A DNA stretch of 64,000 nt, taken from the IMG/VR virus record IMGVR_UViG_3300037067_004608, positions 32,001 through 96,000 of that record, one strand, 5' to 3'. This DNA is from a virus. Taxonomy: Duplodnaviria > Caudoviricetes. This document shows, piece after piece, positions 2,849-56,491 of the stretch. The notes under the pieces were generated by a model. The model did no database searches. It had not been told where the DNA came from and was given only the letters and a program-made list of their open reading frames with translations. The stretch's first letter is position 1. Each line of letters starts with the position of its first letter. A program made the position numbers and the translations under genes.

Positions 2849-3088
2849 CTAGAATCCTTGAAATTCAGGAAGTTTTTCAACCTTCGCAGGACTAATCCAC
2901 TTCTTTCTAAAGCAGGCAATCGAGCCACCATTGACTACATCTTCATTATATGCAGCTATGGCCGAATCACACTCTTCTTGAGTGAAGACAATGAAGCCAG
3001 GCTGGATATCGCCATTACCCCAGAAGAGACACACCTCAAAGGCGGGTCTTGGTATTCGATTAAGAAAACCTCTAAGCCAGTGTGCCAT
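2849..3088 (-). CDS. Hypothetical protein, first gene of the leftward arm
   Basis: GGAGG RBS at 3096-3100 (minus); promoter just upstream. Confidence 0.6.
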   Translation of the reverse strand: MAHWLRGFLNRIPRPAFEVCLFWGNGDIQPGFIVFTQEECDSAIAAYNEDVVNGGSIACFRKKWISPAKVEKLPEFQGF

Positions 3089-3106
3089 CGGCGTCCCTCC
3101 TAACTA

Positions 3107-3135
3107 ATTATACGCGAACGAGAAACGCTGTTGAA
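3107..3135 (-). promoter_or_regulatory. Leftward promoter
   Basis: TTCAAC-N17-TATAAT, with CG immediately before the -10. Confidence 0.55.
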
Positions 3136-3386
3136 GGTATAACTGTTTAATAAAATTGATGTGCATCGTTGAAGAGAAAATGAAAATGGGCGAGATTGGG
3201 CGGTGATGGAGGGGTGCGTATGTGAGAATAGATATAAAATAGATATTATGAGGAAACTATAGAACTGTTTAATAGAAGTGGTGTGCGCGGGAGGTGAGAG
3301 GAACGGACGTGTGAAATCGCGCTCGTATTCCTATATAGCGCGAAACCAGGGGGCCTTCCTTCCTCAAAAACAGGTAGTTTCACTAG

Positions 3387-3415
3387 TTCCATTCTTCCTT
3401 CCTTCGAGGTATAAT
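3387..3415 (+). promoter_or_regulatory. Sigma70-type promoter P1 of the cassette
   Basis: TTCCAT-N17-TATAAT, preceded by ACTAG as in P2. Confidence 0.65.
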
Positions 3416-3454
3416 GTATATGTAAGCGAACGAAGGAAAGTGAGACAAACTACA

Positions 3455-3553
3455 ATGACGAAGGCGTTAGCAATCTTTACCTTAATCATCTTAGGATGTG
3501 CCGGGTATTATGTGTGGGGAATCCTTCAAGTTCTTGGAAGGTTCGCTCACTAG
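3455..3553 (+). CDS. 32-aa single-pass membrane peptide
   Basis: MTKALAIFTLIILGCAGYYVWGILQVLGRFAH downstream of P1; ACTACAATG start context shared with the 4486 gene. Confidence 0.5.
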   Translation: MTKALAIFTLIILGCAGYYVWGILQVLGRFAH

Positions 3554-3572
3554 AAACCAGTAAGAATACTAG

Positions 3573-3601
3573 TTGTCTTACCCGAAGATTCGTGGTAAGA
3601 T
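3573..3601 (+). promoter_or_regulatory. Sigma70-type promoter P2 with extended -10
   Basis: TTGTCT-N17-TAAGAT with TG-n before the -10, preceded by ACTAG. Confidence 0.65.
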
Positions 3602-3611
3602 TAAGTATAGG

Positions 3612-3628
3612 ACATTGACAAACGAATA
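3612..3628 (+). promoter_or_regulatory. boxA-like antitermination element
   Basis: ACATTGACAAACGAATA just after the predicted +1; resembles rRNA-leader boxA (CTTTGAAAACTGAAYA type). Confidence 0.45.
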
Positions 3629-3693
3629 ACGGTTTCCTTCCTCCAAGCCTTCGCGGGGAACGCACAGAAGAGTAAGCAGAGGAAGGGAAGAAT

Positions 3694-4438
3694 AGGGAAG
3701 GGAATCAAGTTTACTCGAATATCGAAAGGGGTAAACATGAAACCTAAGTATAACCTTAATGTCACTCTAACGAAGGAAGGGAAAACCGCTTATGACGGTA
3801 TAGCATTGATGGATGCTATATTCCCCCTTCTTCCAGCGGAAGGTAAGTTTACAATGGCCTTCCGTCACGAAAACCTTCGCGGGTTTGCTAAGATGGTATG
3901 CCTTCTTGCAACCTTCGGCGCGAAGGTAGGCGTGAAGATTCTAACCCGTGCCGATTGGCACGCTTGCGCTACAACCGGGAAGGATATACCGGAAGATGTC
4001 AAAGTCGAGTTTTCCTCGAAGGCCGCCGCCGTATCCTTCCTTTACGTTTCCCAGATTCCCTGTATTGTTGCCGGGAACTGGAAAACACTTCCTTCTGATT
4101 CCGAAGGCGCGCTCGCTACCTTCTTGAAGCACATTCAGGAAAACGGAATCAATCGACTTTGCACAAGTGGCGAAGGCGGGAAAGTTATTCCTCTCAAGAA
4201 GGCAGGCGCATCGACTCTTAGCGCCGTAGTTGAGACAATTATGGATGCTAAGAAGTCGATAGCCGGTAAAGTTCCTGCTAAGAAGGAAGATACTCCTAAG
4301 CAGTCGCCGGTTGCAAGGGCGAAGGCCGCGAAGTCTACTCCAAAGGCAAGAACGCCTAAGACAAAGAAGGCCGAAGTCAAGCCTGTTGAAGCTACAACCG
4401 AAGTAGCTAACGCCTAACTTAACTTGATTCCCTTCCCT
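3694..4438. repeat. 18-bp perfect inverted repeat bracketing CDS 3737-4417
   Basis: AGGGAAGGGAATCAAGTT (3694-3711) / AACTTGATTCCCTTCCCT (4421-4438). Confidence 0.85.
3737..4417 (+). CDS. Unknown protein with Lys/Ala/Pro/Thr-rich H1-like tail; paralog of 17740-18648
   Basis: AAGGGG RBS; tail ...PVARAKAAKSTPKARTPKTKKAEVK; five colinear blocks align to the 17740 protein. Confidence 0.8.
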   Translation: MKPKYNLNVTLTKEGKTAYDGIALMDAIFPLLPAEGKFTMAFRHENLRGFAKMVCLLATFGAKVGVKILTRADWHACATTGKDIPEDVKVEFSSKAAAVSFLYVSQIPCIVAGNWKTLPSDSEGALATFLKHIQENGINRLCTSGEGGKVIPLKKAGASTLSAVVETIMDAKKSIAGKVPAKKEDTPKQSPVARAKAAKSTPKARTPKTKKAEVKPVEATTEVANA

Positions 4439-4485
4439 TCCTTATCTAGTCCGAAACAACGCTAACACGAAGGGAGAACACTACA

Positions 4486-4665
4486 ATGGAACGATGGGTA
4501 TATACAGGATTAAGAGGAAGTCAAGGTAAGATATACCGAAAGGTATATGACGATGTAGAGTCACCCGACTTCGCCGAAGAATACGACAATGGGAACCTTT
4601 GCGAAGTTACCCCCGAAGGATGGGAAACGATCTACCATCATTATGCAATGAAGAAGGCCGCATAA
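4486..4665 (+). CDS. 59-aa hypothetical protein (not in ORF track)
   Basis: MERWVYTGLRGSQGKIYRKVYDDVESPDFAEEYDNGNLCEVTPEGWETIYHHYAMKKAA; AGGGAG RBS. Confidence 0.65.
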   Translation: MERWVYTGLRGSQGKIYRKVYDDVESPDFAEEYDNGNLCEVTPEGWETIYHHYAMKKAA

Positions 4666-4673
4666 GAAGGAAC

Positions 4674-4720
4674 ATAAGTATAGGAAGGAAGGCTTAATTT
4701 ACCTTCCTTCCTATACTTAT
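4674..4720 (+). terminator. 19-bp hairpin ending the cassette
   Basis: ATAAGTATAGGAAGGAAGG-N9-CCTTCCTTCCTATACTTAT. Confidence 0.7.
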
Positions 4721-5102
4721 CTCACAACTCCCAACCCGCCATCACGCCACCACTCAATCACATCTCCATAATCAACAATCCAGCACCACTATCAATTTCA
4801 TCAAACTGAGAGGCAGCCACAGGACTCACCAGCTCACCATCATATGTCTCTCCACCAGCCAGGTGGTGACTGTATGTTGCTATGATAAGAGCATCATTCA
4901 TCTAATTCGCCAGTGGACTGTGATATGCATGTTCTGCGGCTAATTTGTAATACAACAGGCCACCCACATACCACTAATACAGCCATCGCCTATGATATGA
5001 TGAATGTCTGTATAATTCAACAGTCCAATCATCACACAGCACGATGGCCCACCAGTCCATCCACTATTGGCCATATTCACCCGAGCAGATTGAGGACTAA
5101 AA

Positions 5103-8129: not shown

Positions 8130-9704
8130 ACTATTCCTCCTGTCCAGGGTTCTAATATCTGCCTTAGCAATACTCTCTGCCAAGGTGTTCCTTCTGCTAG
8201 AGGTCTTAGTAGTGTATCACAGAGAATGTTTATGAGCATCTCTACACTATAGCATTGAGTATAGCACTCCCCAGTGATGATTGTGTGCTTTTTACCTTGA
8301 ACCCATACTTCAAGAGTATACTCATTTGGGTTTCGGAATATGCCATGACGATCAGCAATATATTTGGGAACAAGAGGGATGTCCTCATACTCAATGTTTA
8401 TCACTGCTGATTACCTTATCGAATGTAACTTTTGTCCCAGGAAAGTTGCGCTCTACAGACTCTGCCCATTTCTCGTTCGCATCATCTAGCACTTCTTTGG
8501 GAACATCTCCTTTAAGAAAAGCAGCAAGTGCTTCTCCTGGGCTTATTTGCTTCTTATCCCCCACAATTTATCCTCTTTCTTGATACTTCGTAGCAACTAT
8601 CAGTCAACTCTCCTGTGAAGACAAATATTGGATGTCCTGATACCCATATCTCTTGTGAGAAAGGATCAGAAGAATCGTGTATAGTTATATCATTGAGAGA
8701 TATACCACTTAATATCATCTCAACTATCGTTTGTTCCATCAACTCACAGCGAGTTCGGATGACTTTCTTGATAAACTCCTCAATCTCTATCATAATATTT
8801 GTAAAAGAAAGAGTTCTGGAGAGCAAGACTCTCTAAATCTTTCTGTATCTGGCCTGCAAGCTTACGAGATACAAGTTTCAGCTGCTCTTTCTCCTTCCAT
8901 ATCTTATAATCCTCTGTAGTAGCAATAAGAAGATAGTGCAATGCCTTATCTAAATGGTATAATGCCTTGTCTGAAGTCTTAAATCCAGCGTTATAATCGC
9001 GTTGAAGGTCGTTCTGGACATTCTCAATGGTCTCTCGATACTTCTTCAGAGGACATTCAGGGAGGATTTCACACTCTTTACAGTAGGTTGGACCACCAAT
9101 AACACTAGATTTTCTTGCGAAACTACGTATATCAGAGCACATAGAGTCAGCATCAGACGACCATTTCAGCTCAACTTCACCATTATGTAGCTCTATTATG
9201 ACGTTCTCGAACATATTCTAGCTGCCTTTGCTCCTGTAGCAAGTCTTATATGAGTCTACTATATGTACAAAACTTCCATCTGGGAGCCTATTTGCGTAGG
9301 AACAGCCTCCACCTTTAACATAATGAGGACATAAACTAGGTATAATACAGCAGTAAAACGCATCTGTTAGCTCTTTCACTGTCGTGTCTCTGTAAGATAT
9401 ATTATTCGACACGTTTCCATTCCTTCTCATTCGCTAGATCAAATAAGCACTTTATAGCAAGATCACGATTAGAAAATGGACCAAAGTGAATGCCAATTAC
9501 ATTACACTGCCCTTTATGAGTTAAAAGAACACCATAAGACCACTGGTCAAATATCCAAAAAGGACCAACAAAATAGCGTCCTTTTTCTTCATCCTCAAAT
9601 ATAGCACTTGCATTGCGCAGACTTTCCATCTTTCTATCTGTAGCATCATCTGCTGCAAATGCTAGGGCAAGACCTTCTGCCGCTGCTTTATCGTTTGCCG
9701 CCAA
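8111..9704 (-). other. Cluster of small hypothetical genes (8111-8404, 8554-about 8793, 8780-9214, 9218-9430, 9402-9704)
   Basis: Dense, coupled minus-strand ORFs. Confidence 0.6.
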
Positions 9705-9747
9705 ATTACATTCCTACCTTTCCTCTACTTATCTATACGACTTACGA

Positions 9748-10020
9748 TAATATCAGTGCCCGGATGGTGAGTCCGAGCACTGATGTCACGCGACTAACAC
9801 TTATTTTTACGCTTTTCTTCAGGGGCGGGGATCTGCTCCTGGCTAGTAGAACTTTACAATGACTAGCCACAGGCGGAATAGCCTTGGGATGATTCCCAAG
9901 GAAATCGACGCACAATATTACATCCCACAAGAATGCTATAAAGTCATAGCCATCGTTATGTGGGATAATAGAAACCGGTGATAAAGACCAGTAACTCGGA
10001 GCGTAGTCCATTGACCTATC
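9748..10020 (-). ncRNA. Candidate structured RNA downstream of the HNH gene
   Basis: Stems ACTGGT/ACCGGT, ATCCCACA/TGTGGGAT, CCTTGGGA/TCCCAAGG, TGGCTAGT/ACTAGCCA, ATCAGTGCTCGGA/TCCGGGCACTGAT. Confidence 0.45.
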
Positions 10021-10027
10021 TTACTAC

Positions 10028-10495
10028 CTAGATATGTGACCAGGTTTTCCGTCGGAGAAGATCAGAAACTGTTGTTTGCCCTACTCCATAATAGAGAGCC
10101 AATTCACTCTGAGTGAACCTCTGAGTAGCATATAGGTCTCTGATCATAAGAACATCGGACTCAGTCAACAGAGAATCAGGGTGCAACTCGCCTCTTACTT
10201 GACTTCCATTAACACCCCTATCAGCCATATTCTCTGTGTGGTCTCCAACTCTCAGATGATCAGGATTAACACAGATAGGATTGTCACCACCAGGACAACG
10301 ATGTAGGATATATAGACCAGTTGGAATAGTCCCTTTGTAGTGCTCATAAGACAGGCGATTAGCTCGGCAGTTCTTTCCATCATACCAAAACTGAGGGTAT
10401 CCAGAACCGCTTATTCCTGCTACCCAAATCCAGCAACCTGTCTCCTCATCCTCCTTGATCTTATCAAGGAATCTTTCCAGGGCCTTACTATCCAT
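10028..10495 (-). CDS. HNH homing endonuclease with C-terminal HTH
   Basis: CWIW.G...GY..F, HRC..DNPICVNPDHL...EN..D, then LTESDV..IR...SELA..YGV. Confidence 0.9.
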   Translation of the reverse strand: MDSKALERFLDKIKEDEETGCWIWVAGISGSGYPQFWYDGKNCRANRLSYEHYKGTIPTGLYILHRCPGGDNPICVNPDHLRVGDHTENMADRGVNGSQVRGELHPDSLLTESDVLMIRDLYATQRFTQSELALYYGVGQTTVSDLLRRKTWSHI

Positions 10496-10631
10496 AGTTC
10501 TTTATACTCCATACGTAACGATCAGCCTAGTAAATCTACTAGGTTTTTCTTGGTATTTAGCGTTTTTCAACCGATTAGTTGACTTATTTATACGGATTAG
10601 GAGGAATTATCCGACCGCTCGTATAAGAAGT

Positions 10632-11352
10632 TAGAGGAAGGCGCGAATAACCCGATAGGGAGTCAGGGAGTCTTAGGAATCCTCCCGCTACCCAGCCTTA
10701 GAGAACCTTTATAATAGAATCGGAACCGATACCAGCCTCCTATAAATAGCGGAACGGACTGGTCTAGGGCGCGTAAGTCGGAGAGAACCCTCTATACTCA
10801 GGAAGAGGCTAGAATCTCCGAGCTAAAGGTTAGTAAGCCCAGGGCGGGCGATAACGAACTATAGCCAAGCGTCGTAAGTCCTTAGTAGCGGCGGAGAGGT
10901 TTAACCCAGGGTTAGGGTAAACGATTAGAATAAAGTAGCGGTCAACTACGGAGTAAGCGTATATCGCGTTCAGGATTAAACTTGATCGGGATAGCCGAAT
11001 CGTAGAACCGAAAGTGCCGGAAGTGAGTATCTAGGGTGAGTACAGTCGGAGTTGAAAACTACGCGATGACCTTGAGATAGAGAGCGATATTAGTGAGTAA
11101 ACAAATGGACAAGCCGAAAGCTAAAGAAAACTGACTTGGAAAGGCTAGAAATGGGCTTCATGAGCGGCTATATAGATTGGAATTGATAAAGATACACTTT
11201 ATCACGTCGGACTGAAGGTCTACAGGAATAGAAGGTGGAGGTAGATTCTGAAGCTGGGTAGAAGGAATGTAGATGGAGGCGACGTTAAGAAGAAAAGAGA
11301 TGAGATCATCAGTGGAGGGTGGCGGTCGAGAAATTGGCTATCCTCCACTTTC
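10632..11352 (+). ncRNA. Candidate large (~720 nt) noncoding RNA or origin in the divergent region
   Basis: No ORF of 60 aa or more in any frame 10583-11371; CGTATA promoter-like motif at 10620; several stems and GAAA loops; terminator at 11311. Confidence 0.4.
11311..11352 (+). terminator. Intrinsic terminator
   Basis: AGTGGAGGGTGGC/GCTATCCTCCACT stem followed by TTT. Confidence 0.65.
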
Positions 11353-12893
11353 CATTATCAAAGAGTGAAATTCAAATATCAATTGAACAGAGGTGACTGA
11401 GGATGGCTAAGATTCCAATTGGAAAAGACGGCGAACCTATGAAGAAGAGAATCCCACCTTCAAAGAAGGTTTGCCCGTTCTCAAAGACACATCCTACAAC
11501 TGGAAGATTATTAGGAATGTGCCATGAAGCAGTTGTTATAGGAGTCCTAAACAAACTCGCAGAAGGCGAAACAGTTATGGATCTTATGAATAGAAAATCA
11601 AGAATAACCCTTGAGCTTGAGGAAAACTGCCCTATATTCCGAGAATGTAAGCTCGCAGCTAGAGTCGAATGCCAGATACGAGTAATCAAAGGAGATGATG
11701 GATCAATCCTTGAAAAGTATCCTATTCCTATTAAAAGGATAAGGACGCAAGATTCAATGACTGAAGAGGAAACTGAGCAGGCAATTAAGGCAAGAAGAAA
11801 TCTCAAGAAGAAGAGTCCTGGATTCATAGGTAAAGCAGCAAAGAGGAATAAGCTGCGAGGAACAAAGAAGCAATCATTTATAAAAGGCCAGGACGGAGAG
11901 AAACTTCTGATCAACTAGGAGGATATAATGGGAAAACCAGTTGGTTCAGTTAATTGTGAAGCAAAAGGTTGTGATCACGATTGGAATGACCTCGACTTCT
12001 GTAATACCTGTGGCGAGATAAGAAGGGATATACAACCAGGTGAGCGGGAGATCGAAGCCAAGTGTGCCAATAAGGATTGTGCTTATTGGGGAGAAAAGTA
12101 TGGAGATTGTGTACTGCTAAACGTAGCGGACAAATGTGGAGACTACAGAAAGAAGGAAGAATAAATGGAGAAATGGAAACTTATAAATCTTGAAAAGAGG
12201 TTTGACAGAGGAGGGCCTGAAGCCTTCAGCGCCTATGAAACTGGTCTTGTATTCCCAGCAGTAGTAGGAATGAGCTTTTCTACTGTGGAGCCAAGGACAA
12301 TAATACTCTTCCCAACAAGAGAAGATTATGAGTCCAACCCTGATCCGCGACACTATATCAATGTCTGCCAATCAGATGAATTTGGTCCAGTGGCTTTGCC
12401 AATAATCAGGCCTGGTAACATAGGAAGCGAACTTGAAATAGTGTTCATTGCTGATGAGCACTTCCCTGGCGGAGAAGGTGAATGGGAAGTAAAGTTCACC
12501 GAACCTAGCTTCAAATCATGGGAGAGCGAAGATGAGGATTGATATAAGCAAACTACCTGTCCAAGCTATAATGGACATTGAGGCATTCTGTGAAAATAAC
12601 AATCGAGAGCACCCAAGAACCACTCAAGAAACTCTTGAGTTCTTCCTCAATTGGAACGGAATATACGGATACACAGAGCGTATTCTTGAGCTAGTTGAGT
12701 GCATCAATAGACAAGAAGGGAAAATTGATGTAATCGGATATATCGATGAAAGCAAGACAAGAGTAAAGCTGCGAATTGATGGTAACAATCCTGGAACAGC
12801 TGAACACAGGATAGCAAAAGCAGAAGAATCTGTGCTCAATAGTATAGTTGAATATATAGAGTTTATGAAATCTCACTAGGAGGAGATATAATC

Positions 12894-28973: not shown

Positions 28974-29017
28974 GCGTGAATTCACGCGAATGCACCGCCT
29001 CTCGGATACTAGACGGG
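28974..29017 (+). repeat. Palindromic element copy 6
   Basis: GCGTGAATTCACGCGAATGCA-N13-ACTAGACGGG. Confidence 0.9.
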
Positions 29018-29758
29018 TTTTAATACTCGTTTCCTAAGTAAAGAGGGTGCAATGACATAATAACAGGAGAAGATAATGGTAGTGGACAGTAAACAATATG
29101 CCGTTGGTTTAACTAGGATATATTTCTATTGTTTCGAGTGTGGACCAGATATAGATGATCCTAGTGCACCAGGCAAGAAAAAGAAAGACACTCCTGGCCA
29201 GAGAGTTATGAAAGCTGAATGGAGAAAAGATTCCAGAGTATATTGTCCACGCTGTAAAAGACTTATGATCTTTGATGGTGATGCATTATATGACAATGTA
29301 ACAGGAAATGCTCATTTTTGGATAGAGAGACCAGATGGACTCATAGTCCCAAGAGGTCACCTATTCAGATACGACCTAAAAGGTGAAGGATATGTTTCAC
29401 CAAGATACATTTCACCAAAACCAGGAGATGGTGTAAACATAGACTTTGTAAAAGAATATGATAGGCTGAATGGAGGAAACAGTGCAGTGCAACAGATGCC
29501 CTAATACTTTCCCAAAAGATGCAGTCCACGATCTTCATCTTGATATAGAAGAAGGAGTCATGATACATGTTTCCTTCCCTATAAATCAAGTTGATGGAGA
29601 AGTAATTTCTCTGTGTAAAGATTGTCTACAGTCAACTTTCCAAGAGTTCATGGACAATCTTAATCCAGCACAAAAGCAATTCATGAGAGACCAAGCAAGA
29701 AAACAAGCGATTGATGTATCAATATTATCGCTTGTAGCAGATATGGAAGAATAAAAGG

Positions 29759-41826: not shown

Positions 41827-42175
41827 GGGGCCGAAATGGTTTCGACAGAGGGCAGACGAAGCATACTGCGAGCCGAGATGACTGTAGGACTCGTGAATCA
41901 GTCAAACAATAAAAGCGAATACAGACACACTCTCTTCCATCGCTGGCAGAAATGCCGACATGGAAGTAATGGCTGCCTAGCGTAGCCTGTCTCTCATTCT
42001 GACTCCGATATGATGAGAGGCTCAAATTATCGGACTGGCAAGCTGAACCACAATATGACGATAGTGGGAGGGGTCACCTCCAGCTCTAATCGTGGAAGAA
42101 AAGATGGTGACTACGCTCGTAGACGTTTGTTAGAAAACCTTTTGGACAGGGGTTCGATTCCCCTCGGCTCCACCA
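41827..42175 (+). ncRNA. ssrA: tmRNA
   Basis: 5' GGGGCCGAAATGGTTTCGAC; 3' CAGGGGTTCGATTCCCCTCGGCTCCACCA with G3:U Ala determinant and encoded CCA; tag frame 41915-41980 ANTDTLSSIAGRNADMEVMAA*. Confidence 0.97.
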
Positions 42176-43750: not shown

Positions 43751-43792
43751 CCCGTCTAACGATTGGAAGGCCCTGCAATCGCGTGAATTCAC
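43751..43792 (-). repeat. Palindromic element copy 7 (opposite to local transcription)
   Basis: Minus strand reads GTGAATTCACGCGATTGCA-N13-GTTAGACGGG. Confidence 0.9.
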
Positions 43793-43842
43793 TCGCCTTT
43801 TCCGCCCCGAAACGACCGAAACGACCGAAGGAGGAAAGGAAT

Positions 43843-54600: not shown

Positions 54601-56406
54601 ATGAAGTTTGCAAACAGACTCGTTCTTGTGTTAGCACTAATTTTGTGCTGCACAGTGGCATTCTCTGCCACTTACTATGTGAAATGGGATTCTCCCATTA
54701 ATGGTCCTGGTAATGATCTTGACCATGCATACCATACTATTGCTGCTGCAATAACTGCTTCAAGCAACGGGGATACAATATATGTATATGGTCCTCACTC
54801 ATATGCAGAATCCCTAGACTTGAATAAGCAACTGACGGTTACAGGAGTAAATGGGCCGACTATAGATGCTTCTTCCACTGGTTACGGAATTATAATCAGT
54901 GCGGCATCTAACTTACAATACTTCACTGTTCTTGGAGGACATTTTAATGCAATAAGCATAAAGAATGCTGCAACAGGAACAATGGTAAAAGGCTGTACAG
55001 TAAATGTATACCAGTATGGTAAAGGTATCTATATTGGATATGACAGTGCATCAGCATCAGCATCTGCTAGAATTGACAATAACATAATCTCCGGTGGTTC
55101 CTGGAAATCAGAGGGAATATTTGGCTGTATAATTTCTTGGGGAGGTAACTCGATTATAACAAGTAACCTCATCAAGAATGGTGCTCTTGGAATATTCTTA
55201 TATGGAAGTGGATCACCGTCTATTTACAATAACACAATTGTTGGATGCAACAATGTAGCAACTGGTTCAAATCCTCCTGCAACAAAAGGTGGAGGAATAT
55301 ACATAACTCACTATAGTTGGCCACTTATTGAAAATAACATAATTGCCAACAATAACGCTGATTATGGTGGAGCCTATTACATAGACCTAACAGGTGGTGG
55401 CTCTGTTCAGGATATGGGGTGGAACACATTCTATGGAAATACTTCAAATATTTCTGGATATGTTTACTACCCAACACAAGCCAATTTTGGAACAATTGGT
55501 GTAGATGGAAATAACGAAGATAATCCAGTATTTGTTGGAAGTTCTGATTACAGACTACAATATAACTCAACATGTATAGGAACTGGAAACAATAACTATG
55601 CTGGCGGAGAATGCTGCTGGAAAGATATAACAGGACTTCCTCGTGTATTGCCAGCAGCGGGAACTGTTGACAGAGGATGTTATGAAGGTGCATCTGTACT
55701 AACAAATACAAGAACTGTGGGCGACTGGGTAGAGCTAAGATCAAAACCTGTAACTGGTAACTTTACAGATATGTTCTATGTTGAAGAGCCAAGTAGAGTT
55801 AATGGAGTAAAGATACTATCTACAAGTTCTGCAGTTGCTGGAGATTTAGCAACAATAGATGGACAGTATGTTACAAATGAAAATGAGTTATCTATTCAGC
55901 CAACAAGTGTTTCTATAACTTCTGGAAGCTCTTCAAATATACCAGGGACTCTTGGAATGCCAAACCGATCTCTTGGAGGAATAAACATAGGACTCCTTGT
56001 TAGAGTTTGGGGAAAGATAACTTCAGCAGCAGCTGGCGTATACCTAATAGATGATGGTTCTGGTATAAACAGCACTGTTCTCTGGTATGGAACTCCCTAC
56101 AACGTTAATGACTACATAGCTGTAACAGGGGTAAGTTGTTATGGTTGTGTAAGAGCAACTTCTGTTGACTATATAACAACAATAGAAGGTCAGCAGATGA
56201 TGTCTATGGGAATGTCCTCAAGTTCTCTATCTATTGATAAGAGTTCATCTAAATATGAATCCATTCTCAGATGGCAGCAGTTCTTACAGGACAACTTAGA
56301 TGAGCTTGCAAAGCACGAGAAATTAACCGCTTCACAGATAAGCTGGAAGAATCTTATTGAGATACTTATGAAGCAGGCCCAAGAGCAACTATCCAGCTAT
56401 AAGTAA
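54601..56406 (+). CDS. Secreted right-handed beta-helix protein with C-terminal OB-like repeats
   Basis: Signal peptide, TYYV, TI.AAI...GDTI.V, I.NNTI/I.NNII rungs, VDRGCYE, NIGLLVRVWGKIT...IDDGSG. Confidence 0.85.
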   Translation: MKFANRLVLVLALILCCTVAFSATYYVKWDSPINGPGNDLDHAYHTIAAAITASSNGDTIYVYGPHSYAESLDLNKQLTVTGVNGPTIDASSTGYGIIISAASNLQYFTVLGGHFNAISIKNAATGTMVKGCTVNVYQYGKGIYIGYDSASASASARIDNNIISGGSWKSEGIFGCIISWGGNSIITSNLIKNGALGIFLYGSGSPSIYNNTIVGCNNVATGSNPPATKGGGIYITHYSWPLIENNIIANNNADYGGAYYIDLTGGGSVQDMGWNTFYGNTSNISGYVYYPTQANFGTIGVDGNNEDNPVFVGSSDYRLQYNSTCIGTGNNNYAGGECCWKDITGLPRVLPAAGTVDRGCYEGASVLTNTRTVGDWVELRSKPVTGNFTDMFYVEEPSRVNGVKILSTSSAVAGDLATIDGQYVTNENELSIQPTSVSITSGSSSNIPGTLGMPNRSLGGINIGLLVRVWGKITSAAAGVYLIDDGSGINSTVLWYGTPYNVNDYIAVTGVSCYGCVRATSVDYITTIEGQQMMSMGMSSSSLSIDKSSSKYESILRWQQFLQDNLDELAKHEKLTASQISWKNLIEILMKQAQEQLSSYK

Positions 56407-56447
56407 AGCGTATATACGATAGCGGAGGAGTTCCGATAGCGTTTTAA

Positions 56448-56491
56448 GCGTGAATTCACGCGAATGCAATCGGTTCACGCGGTTAGACGGG
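56448..56491 (+). repeat. Palindromic element copy 8
   Basis: GCGTGAATTCACGCGAATGCA-N13-GTTAGACGGG. Confidence 0.9.

Follow-up and report, generated by a model that had tools for sequence, protein, structure and literature searches.

What lies in the 907-bp gap (10496-11402) between two divergent gene arms of an uncultured phage genome, and why is part of it almost devoid of the dinucleotide TG? The gap belongs to a stretch of 64,000 nucleotides (nt) from the IMG/VR record IMGVR_UViG_3300037067_004608, here called the window or, as a member of alignments, W; it comprises bases 32001-96000 of one 123,839-bp contig, and positions are those of the window unless a locus or the genome is named. 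On the left the gap is bounded by a minus-strand gene for an HNH homing endonuclease, the genes on this side being small and encoded on the minus strand, and on the right by a plus-strand open reading frame (ORF) of 171 amino acids (aa), the plus strand from 11.4 kb onward encoding a DnaB-type helicase, a primase, a ligase, a DnaE-type polymerase, and other phage replication proteins. Comparison of homologous sequences leaves very little doubt that a structured RNA family exists in the gap, and on balance the gap seems to encode a new family of large, structured non-coding phage RNA, free-standing and with a 5' domain that excludes UG. An earlier note, made from the letters of the window alone, had proposed a non-coding RNA of ~720 nt, a replication origin required to be unmodified, or both; the structured RNA is strongly supported by conservation and by compensatory pair changes in 12 homologues. 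The note had also called the region ORF-free, as indeed it is apart from a 59-aa TTG frame (10455-10634) and frames of 31 and 42 aa at 11220-11368, the 31-aa frame (11273-11368, in the 3' part of the RNA) being non-conserved and stopping after four codons in the related locus L084.

The phage is one without a close cultured relative, since its DnaE-type polymerase is less than 33% identical to anything among 50,697 deposited phage records, and a blastn search of these records with the RNA region found no match. Homologues of the 171-aa ORF form 15 clusters in metagenome assemblies (41-88% aa identity), and the contig of every such homologue has a large ORF-free region directly upstream. With further loci added by DNA-pattern scans, 12 distinct sequences were assembled (W, L082, L086, L083, L084, L091, L088/L103, L087/L097, L090, L101/L102, L098, and L099/L100, the last member being truncated), derived from landfill, groundwater, and similar metagenomes. 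With a profile derived from the alignment, nhmmer detects a single copy in each locus (E-values 1e-16 to 1e-275) and likewise one in the present genome, at 10526-11365 and without a paralogue. The RNA-bearing phages constitute an uncultured, uncharacterised group with genomes of ~113-124 kb, and the RNA family is rare: exact-pattern scans gave one true match in IMG/VR, four in JGI metagenomes, and none in 185,579 GTDB representative prokaryote genomes, while searches of IMG/VR loci with the 171-aa protein, singly or as a profile, led to one contig only. A screen of IMG/VR for structured RNAs demanded three IMG/VR regions (PMC10690425) and therefore could not find this family. Two other routes to relatives were rejected, namely a DUF5662 neighbour used as an anchor, which led to 80 unrelated phage loci, none with an RNA homologue, and the 18-mer CGGTNAACNACGGAGTAA, the five matches of which (L092-L096) were chance matches rejected by nhmmer.

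The 3' domain of the RNA has ~80% nucleotide identity to loci whose flanking protein is ~57-60% identical, and core motifs persist in members with 41-47% protein identity, the most distant members keeping ACCG.AA.TGCCG, GGTGAGTACAG, GAGCGGCTA..TA.A.TG.AA, and GATACAC. A consensus structure from nine sequences contains 222 pairs, with 90.6% of the cells paired as opposed to 31-41% when the partners are slid by 1-3 columns; 87 of these pairs have changed on both sides, a number not reached by any of 500 shuffles (mean 44) or by the slid controls (12-20). A conservative consensus from thirteen sequences contains 125 pairs (90.9% paired), 75 of them compensatory, compared with a shuffle mean of 39 (again 0 of 500 as high) and 14-29 in the slid controls, in which 31-44% of cells pair over both alignments. 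The alignment and covariation check that the earlier note had recommended has thus found a conserved structure, and the locus shows two generic marks of a free-standing large non-coding RNA: conservation beyond that of the neighbouring proteins and compensatory changes above controls.

Several helices covary at every position. In the nine-sequence analysis, helices 6, 10, 13, 16, 17, 21, and 25 of the 5' domain have three to five covarying pairs each, and the stems that had been picked out by eye (CGGAGA/TCTCCG enclosing CCTCT/AGAGG) are present and covary in relatives (helices 16, 17, and 41). In a hairpin with an invariant AUACA loop (GATACAC, 11184-11204, plus strand; helix 25 of the thirteen-sequence set), seven of the eight stem pairs covary. 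The terminal hairpin (helix 41) has 13 pairs, four of them compensatory, and its stem differs in sequence yet still pairs in L101, L098, and L099. Between the two halves of the RNA, L083, L084, L091, L088, L087, and L090 carry an optional covarying hairpin domain of ~75 nt (columns 566-646 of alignment A2), absent from W, L082, and L086, so that the RNA measures ~720 nt here and ~800 nt in relatives with the extra domain; as read from the alignment, the gain of this domain is typical of modular RNA evolution.

The most conserved part is the 3' domain (10984-11353, plus strand), which contains the cores ACCGAAAGTGCCGG and GGTGAGTACAG as well as GAGCGGCTA.ATAGA.TGGAA at 11162-11182. Its alifold energy is -104 kcal/mol on the plus strand and -75 kcal/mol on the minus strand, and its strand-specific pairs comprise 67 G-U and 6 A-C cells, which clearly points to a plus-strand RNA. 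The 5' domain (10635-10983, plus strand) is predicted to form a multi-branch fold, nearly pure in Watson-Crick pairs and free of UG, with A-rich loops. Transcription would most likely run rightward from a sigma-A-like promoter, for which the candidate is TAGGAG-18-TATAAG (10598-10627; columns 114-146 of A2), six relatives having TAGAC[T/G]-17-TATA[C/A]T at the aligned position. It would end at a GC-rich hairpin, GTGGAGG...CCTCCAC followed by TTTCC (11312-11353), an intrinsic-terminator-like element whose presence the earlier note had already recorded. Promoter-like and terminator-like boundaries together predict an RNA of ~719 nt (10635-11353) at the head of the rightward arm of replication genes. 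A scan for sigma-70 promoters found none pointing rightward, and TAGRC-17-TATA is not enriched as a promoter type across the genome (6 found, 8.3 expected).

Directly downstream, the gene of the 171-aa protein (11403-11918, plus strand) follows the RNA in all 12 lineages. The protein has invariant residues Cys24, Cys40-His41, Cys76, and Cys82 (alignment A3) and a Lys/Arg-rich C-terminal tail, and strict synteny makes it a candidate partner of the RNA and nothing more. The RNA, for its part, may act as a stable folded molecule, probably together with this Cys/His protein and its basic tail; a role as mere DNA or as a simple leader of an mRNA is considered less likely. The TG-free tract would be the 5' domain plus the promoter region.

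This tract is the other peculiarity of the locus. In 10621-10980 there are 1 TG, 9 CA, 25 CG, and 40 TA (observed/expected ratios, o/e, of 0.05, 0.39, 1.19, and 1.79), the first three counts being exactly those given in the earlier note, and all nine CA lie in YCAR contexts (seven CAG and two CAA). The tract had been reported as a 360-bp segment; it is real and somewhat larger, extending over ~10460-10983 on the plus strand (3 TG in 524 nt, TA in excess, CG normal) and thus over the control region and the RNA 5' domain. Here lie, side by side, the two TG-free gaps that exceed all others in the 123.8-kb genome, 10580-10760 (180 nt) and 10760-10983 (223 nt), while in 40 simulations with a first-order Markov model the longest such gap was 134 nt on average and 175 nt at most. 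Among the 524-nt windows of the genome, the one at 10457 has the fewest TG (3), the mean being 32.8 (standard deviation 6.0) and the next lowest value elsewhere 13. The description of the tract as CG-rich holds in a relative sense, its o/e of ~1.2 comparing with ~0.35 for the genome, which is strongly CpG-depleted throughout (0.2-0.5 per kb, with TG and CA at ~1.1-1.3). CG is also kept near 1 in the 3' domain and in the phage-encoded transfer-messenger RNA (tmRNA; 41827-42175, tag ANTDTLSSIAGRNADMEVMAA), and its richness may be apparent only, with selection on the fold preserving CpG where the genome at large is depleted of it.

The depletion of TG is shared by the whole family and is not peculiar to the present genome. 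In every lineage it extends from 700 to 200 nt upstream of the GAGCGGCTA core, and the 5' domain has 1-8 TG where ~20 are expected (1 against 18 in the distant L101). ATG is absent from this domain in 11 of the 12 lineages, the distant L098 alone having any (two), and nine 5' domains summed contain no ATG, four GTG, five TTG, and 24 CTG. TG is at a normal level in the 3' domain (19-24 in the nine closer lineages), and the tmRNA is normal in both TG and CA. Within the 5' domain, TG accounts for ~1% of dinucleotides regardless of structural context (stack, helix edge, or loop), while CA is at 0.8%, 5.8%, and 2.9% in these three contexts, respectively. The CA deficit is explained by pairing, because a CA inside a helix forces a UG opposite, so that a ban on UG in the sense strand together with this echo accounts for the asymmetry of one TG to nine CA. 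The earlier suggestion that the tract obeys the same rule as the flanks of a dispersed palindrome is therefore partly right, the difference being that the rule is strand-specific here, with TG lost everywhere and CA only inside helices. Selection on the sense strand would then act against UG, most of all in the start codons AUG, GUG, and UUG. The avoided triplets coincide with the start codons of bacteria, Shine-Dalgarno-like GGAGG and AGGA motifs abound in the RNA, and the leading, weak idea is selection against ribosome loading on a nascent 5' domain exposed for long; that start-codon avoidance causes the loss of UG is conceivable, if doubtful. We know of no described constraint of the kind represented by this near-total absence of UG or by the CA-free unit of RNA and gene found in one relative.

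Several observations weigh against a free plus-strand RNA with a UG-excluding 5' domain and a protein partner. Transcription, the ends of the RNA, and the strand of its 5' domain are read from sequence, and the sequencing runs that hold this sequence yield DNA contigs from landfill and groundwater metagenomes, with no RNA run among them. TG depletion starts ~170 nt upstream of the predicted RNA start and so is not explained by a cause acting on the RNA only, and the 3' domain carries 5-9 AUG per sequence, so that avoidance of start codons is no general need of the RNA. A long-range helix joining the 5' and 3' domains (columns 227-236 with 823-834 of A2) was predicted and rejected; it never covaries and is mismatched in W and in divergent members. 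Family and structure searches with the 171-aa protein gave nothing that points to RNA binding: there was no Pfam or PHROG family match, its AlphaFold2 (AF2) model (predicted local distance difference test, pLDDT, 69.5, moderate) had no Foldseek or VIA-align match above noise, an Atlas look-up gave no lead, and a JGI label of 'YlqC-like RNA-binding' on the homologue P0007 was not reproduced. Neither strand is clearly favoured by the folding of the 5' domain, and the 60 pairs common to both strands include 12 G-U and 17 A-C cells. Finally, in L099/L100, two independent assemblies, the plus strand is almost free of CA over ~1.1 kb (one or two CA, o/e 0.04), a zone (L099:1-1100; L100:1-880) that covers the 3' half of the RNA and the entire downstream gene of 180 aa, the product of which (P0013) contains no glutamine and a single histidine, the invariant one. 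CG is not depleted in this zone (0.9-1.3, compared with 0.28 further downstream). As a whole gene is included, a strand-specific dinucleotide rule acts there independently of RNA folding.

The ambiguity of the 5' domain could be taken to mean that the locus specifies two divergent RNAs, the 5' domain being a leftward, CA-free RNA from the minus strand and the 3' domain alone a plus-strand RNA. The energies (-116 on the minus and -124 on the plus strand) and the compensatory pairs (35 and 32) would allow this, and one rule, transcripts without CA, would then serve both this locus and L099. However, the loops of a minus-strand RNA would be 45% U and pyrimidine-rich, unlike the A-rich 3' domain, the direction of the conserved promoter-like motif is rightward, a search of the minus strand yielded no terminator, and a helix CGGT/ACCG (helix 12), linking the 3' domain with the end of the 5' domain and showing a compensatory change in L099, spans the proposed boundary. 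A pair of divergent RNAs is accordingly a very remote prospect. On the plus strand, A makes up 45% and G 24% of the unpaired bases in the 5' domain, the 3' half being likewise A-rich, and these bases, together with helix 12 and the direction of the promoter-like motif, favour a plus-strand origin for the 5' half as well.

A second explanation makes the locus a replication origin, with the RNA as an origin transcript in the manner of ColE1 RNA II or the T4 and T7 primers, and turns the exclusion of TG and CA into a rule at the DNA level, by which strands made or exposed outward from ~10983 lack the target of a nuclease, deaminase, or modification acting on CA/TG. The cumulative GC skew has its global minimum at genome position 42,539, that is at window position 10539, inside the conserved control region, and its maximum at 103,134. 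The dinucleotide polarity is consistent, since left of ~10983 the sense strand is poor in TG in all lineages and right of it poor in CA (strongly in L099/L100, about two-fold in most others). Moreover, the depletion reaches upstream DNA that would not be transcribed and, in L099, coding DNA at the cost of every glutamine codon, and the genome contains 16 islands of at least 50 nt free of both TG and CA where Markov simulations give 2.7, so that a DNA-level rule exists elsewhere in it too. Yet gene orientation flips at the same points as the skew extremes and alone explains the minimum, the skew switch (10539) and the polarity switch (~10983) do not coincide, and no convincing iterons, direct repeats, or DnaA-box arrays were found. 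The 3' domain, lying past the polarity switch, folds in a conserved way and ends in a terminator-like hairpin of its own, which primer RNAs are not known to do, and the loss of CA in the 5' domain depends on RNA structure. We therefore regard an origin with its transcript as improbable. The polarity would be compatible with a process tied to the outward synthesis or exposure of strands from a midpoint, or with sequences that avoid a nuclease, deaminase, or modification specific for CA/TG. A broader proposal, that the zone is under a strand-specific exclusion overriding both RNA and protein sequence, as the footprint of a CA/TG-specific agent on the strand first made or first exposed at an origin or immediate-early unit, is still unlikely; if true, it would define a new kind of 'target-free' zone, with the large RNA as part of an origin or early unit.

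The fixed neighbourhood of the RNA raises the further question of whether it acts in cis as a giant 5' leader for the operon of replication genes, with a fold that, perhaps protein-bound, controls read-through of the terminator at 11312-11353 and thereby the 171-aa gene and later genes. Immediately behind the RNA there is always one and the same gene, reading in the direction of the RNA; in W only ~50 nt separate the terminator hairpin from the ribosome-binding site with no obvious separate promoter between them, and in L082 the gene call P0002 is entered in frame from the 3' end of the RNA. On the other hand, 720-800 nt with more than 75 covarying pairs far exceed known leaders, the core of the RNA is conserved better than the gene it would regulate, and extra ORFs and spacers of 300-700 nt part the RNA from the gene in L083, L088/L103, and L091. 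The extra ORFs, seen between RNA and protein gene in L083 and L103, mean that the RNA need not abut the gene's ribosome-binding site. A leader is thus rather unlikely, and the RNA would probably be free-standing. The L082 gene call itself (L082:6001-6615, 204 aa) fuses a non-conserved frame at the RNA 3' end (MEATLRRKEM...) to the 171-aa protein and is probably an annotation artefact.

What remains is a group of readings without a non-coding RNA of this kind: the locus might act purely at the DNA level, as an origin, an array of operators, or a site for packaging; it might be a mobile element resembling an intron and linked with the HNH gene; or it might code for a protein in a different genetic code. 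They draw on the adjoining homing endonuclease and on the lack of TGA in the tract, through which a reading frame would stay open under a code that reads TAA and TAG as sense codons, but substitutions that preserve G-U pairs and nested multi-branch covariation point to RNA. The indels are not multiples of three, start codons are missing, the sole short frame is not conserved, and each genome has a single copy with no paralogue. An intron is contradicted by the lack of a group I or II match in Rfam and by the position of the element between divergent operons, where it splits no host gene. Any of these readings is hardly credible. The HNH gene itself (10028-10495, minus strand) is free-standing and abuts the conserved block from outside the RNA; its 155-aa product matches PHROG endonuclease/HNH families (E 3e-27 to 1e-18) and Pfam HNH_3. 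It occupies the exact left edge of the conserved RNA and control block in just two of the 12 lineages, W and L084/L085 (L084:714-1202; L085:350-838), the remaining relatives having different leftward genes, and an insertion at this edge fits homing beside a highly conserved target.

How does a plus-strand RNA of this size relate to those already described? To our knowledge, very few classes of large, intricately folded RNA exist in bacteria and phages, namely GOLLD, ROOL, OLE, HEARO, and raiA. Each known class of large RNA opened new biology, such as RNA-only cages or guide RNAs. Searches against Rfam 15 with cmscan, using permissive filters and E up to 10 on 9500-12500 and on L084, L088, and L090, returned only noise outside the element and no family match to the RNA, which is therefore not GOLLD, ROOL, OLE, HEARO, or an intron. 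GOLLD and ROOL are large RNAs of elaborate structure, found in Lactobacillales and rumen bacteria as well as in phages of these hosts. The earlier note had placed the present RNA in their size class, and this much is shared: all belong to a class of ~600-800 nt, often phage-borne and non-coding, with an intricate fold and many covarying helices, membership in either family being excluded by the absence of a covariance-model match. Their likeness to the present RNA is thus one of size class and kind of fold, and the present RNA differs in its fixed protein-gene neighbour (rather than tRNAs) and its UG-free 5' half. Cryo-electron microscopy has shown that GOLLD and ROOL form RNA-only multimers (PMC12286853).

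OLE, a conserved bacterial RNA of ~600 nt, forms a ribonucleoprotein with small dedicated proteins encoded nearby, OapA/B/C (PMC9723947). It resembles the present RNA in size, conservation, and the presence of a small protein encoded nearby, which here is a candidate partner only; the candidate is an unrelated 171-aa Cys/His basic protein, and the RNA is carried by a phage while OLE is found on cellular chromosomes. No OLE covariance model matched, and the neighbours are the HNH gene and the 171-aa protein gene instead of oapA/B/C. HEARO, the omega-RNA of IscB, was likewise rejected for want of a match, the neighbour being, in place of an IscB-type (RuvC plus HNH) gene, one for an opposite-strand, homing-type HNH_3 protein that is missing in most relatives. 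ColE1 RNA II and phage origin primers are structured transcripts of several hundred nt at sites where replication may start. The position of the present RNA at the GC-skew minimum of its genome recalls them, but such primers are not known to be conserved folds downstream of the initiation point or to end in a terminator of their own, and no iterons or DnaA boxes are seen here. The pRNA of phi29, a phage structural RNA of 174 nt, works with phage proteins. It is unrelated in sequence and position, and nothing links the present RNA to packaging genes. Protein sponges of the CsrB/RsmZ type present many GGA motifs in hairpin loops; three conserved loops of the 5' domain read (U/C)AGGRA, but the RNA has a conserved long-range architecture, which such sponges are not known to have. 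An RNA family with a constant Cys/His protein neighbour offers a concrete new RNA or ribonucleoprotein to express and solve, and explaining the exclusion of UG and CA could reveal a dinucleotide-specific activity of host or phage or a new way of shielding nascent RNAs from ribosomes.

Upstream of the RNA, the control region between the divergent arms (10496-10634) forms a conserved block in alignments A1 and A2 and contains the conserved TCAACCGATT. A hairpin followed by a T-run (10524-10552, plus strand) lies within it, as does an inverted repeat, TATACG at 10589 and CGTATA at 10620, both motifs being present where the earlier note had placed them. A leftward promoter-like element, TAGGCT-17-TATAAA (10529 to 10502, minus strand), is, like the rightward candidate, a pattern match only, and its -35-like box lies inside the conserved hairpin (10524-10545). 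This TAGGCT box and the TAGAC box of the RNA are both variants of TTGACA free of TG and CA.

Among the islands free of TG and CA, examples are found at 280-338, 28993-29048, 43790-43842, 56394-56451, and 70850-70918, and several flank copies of the dispersed palindrome GCGTGAATTCACGC, one palindrome-flanking island lying ~0.2 kb from the GC-skew maximum. Another odd region, 3000-4800, surrounds a plus-strand gene (3737-4417) within the leftward arm and combines a CG o/e of ~1 with a CA-free gap of 183 nt (3164-3347) and TG-free gaps at 3616-3738 and 4649-4807. In L098, a CA-rich tract without CG (L098:1801-2300; 10-20 CA per 100 nt) lies ~1 kb upstream of the RNA.

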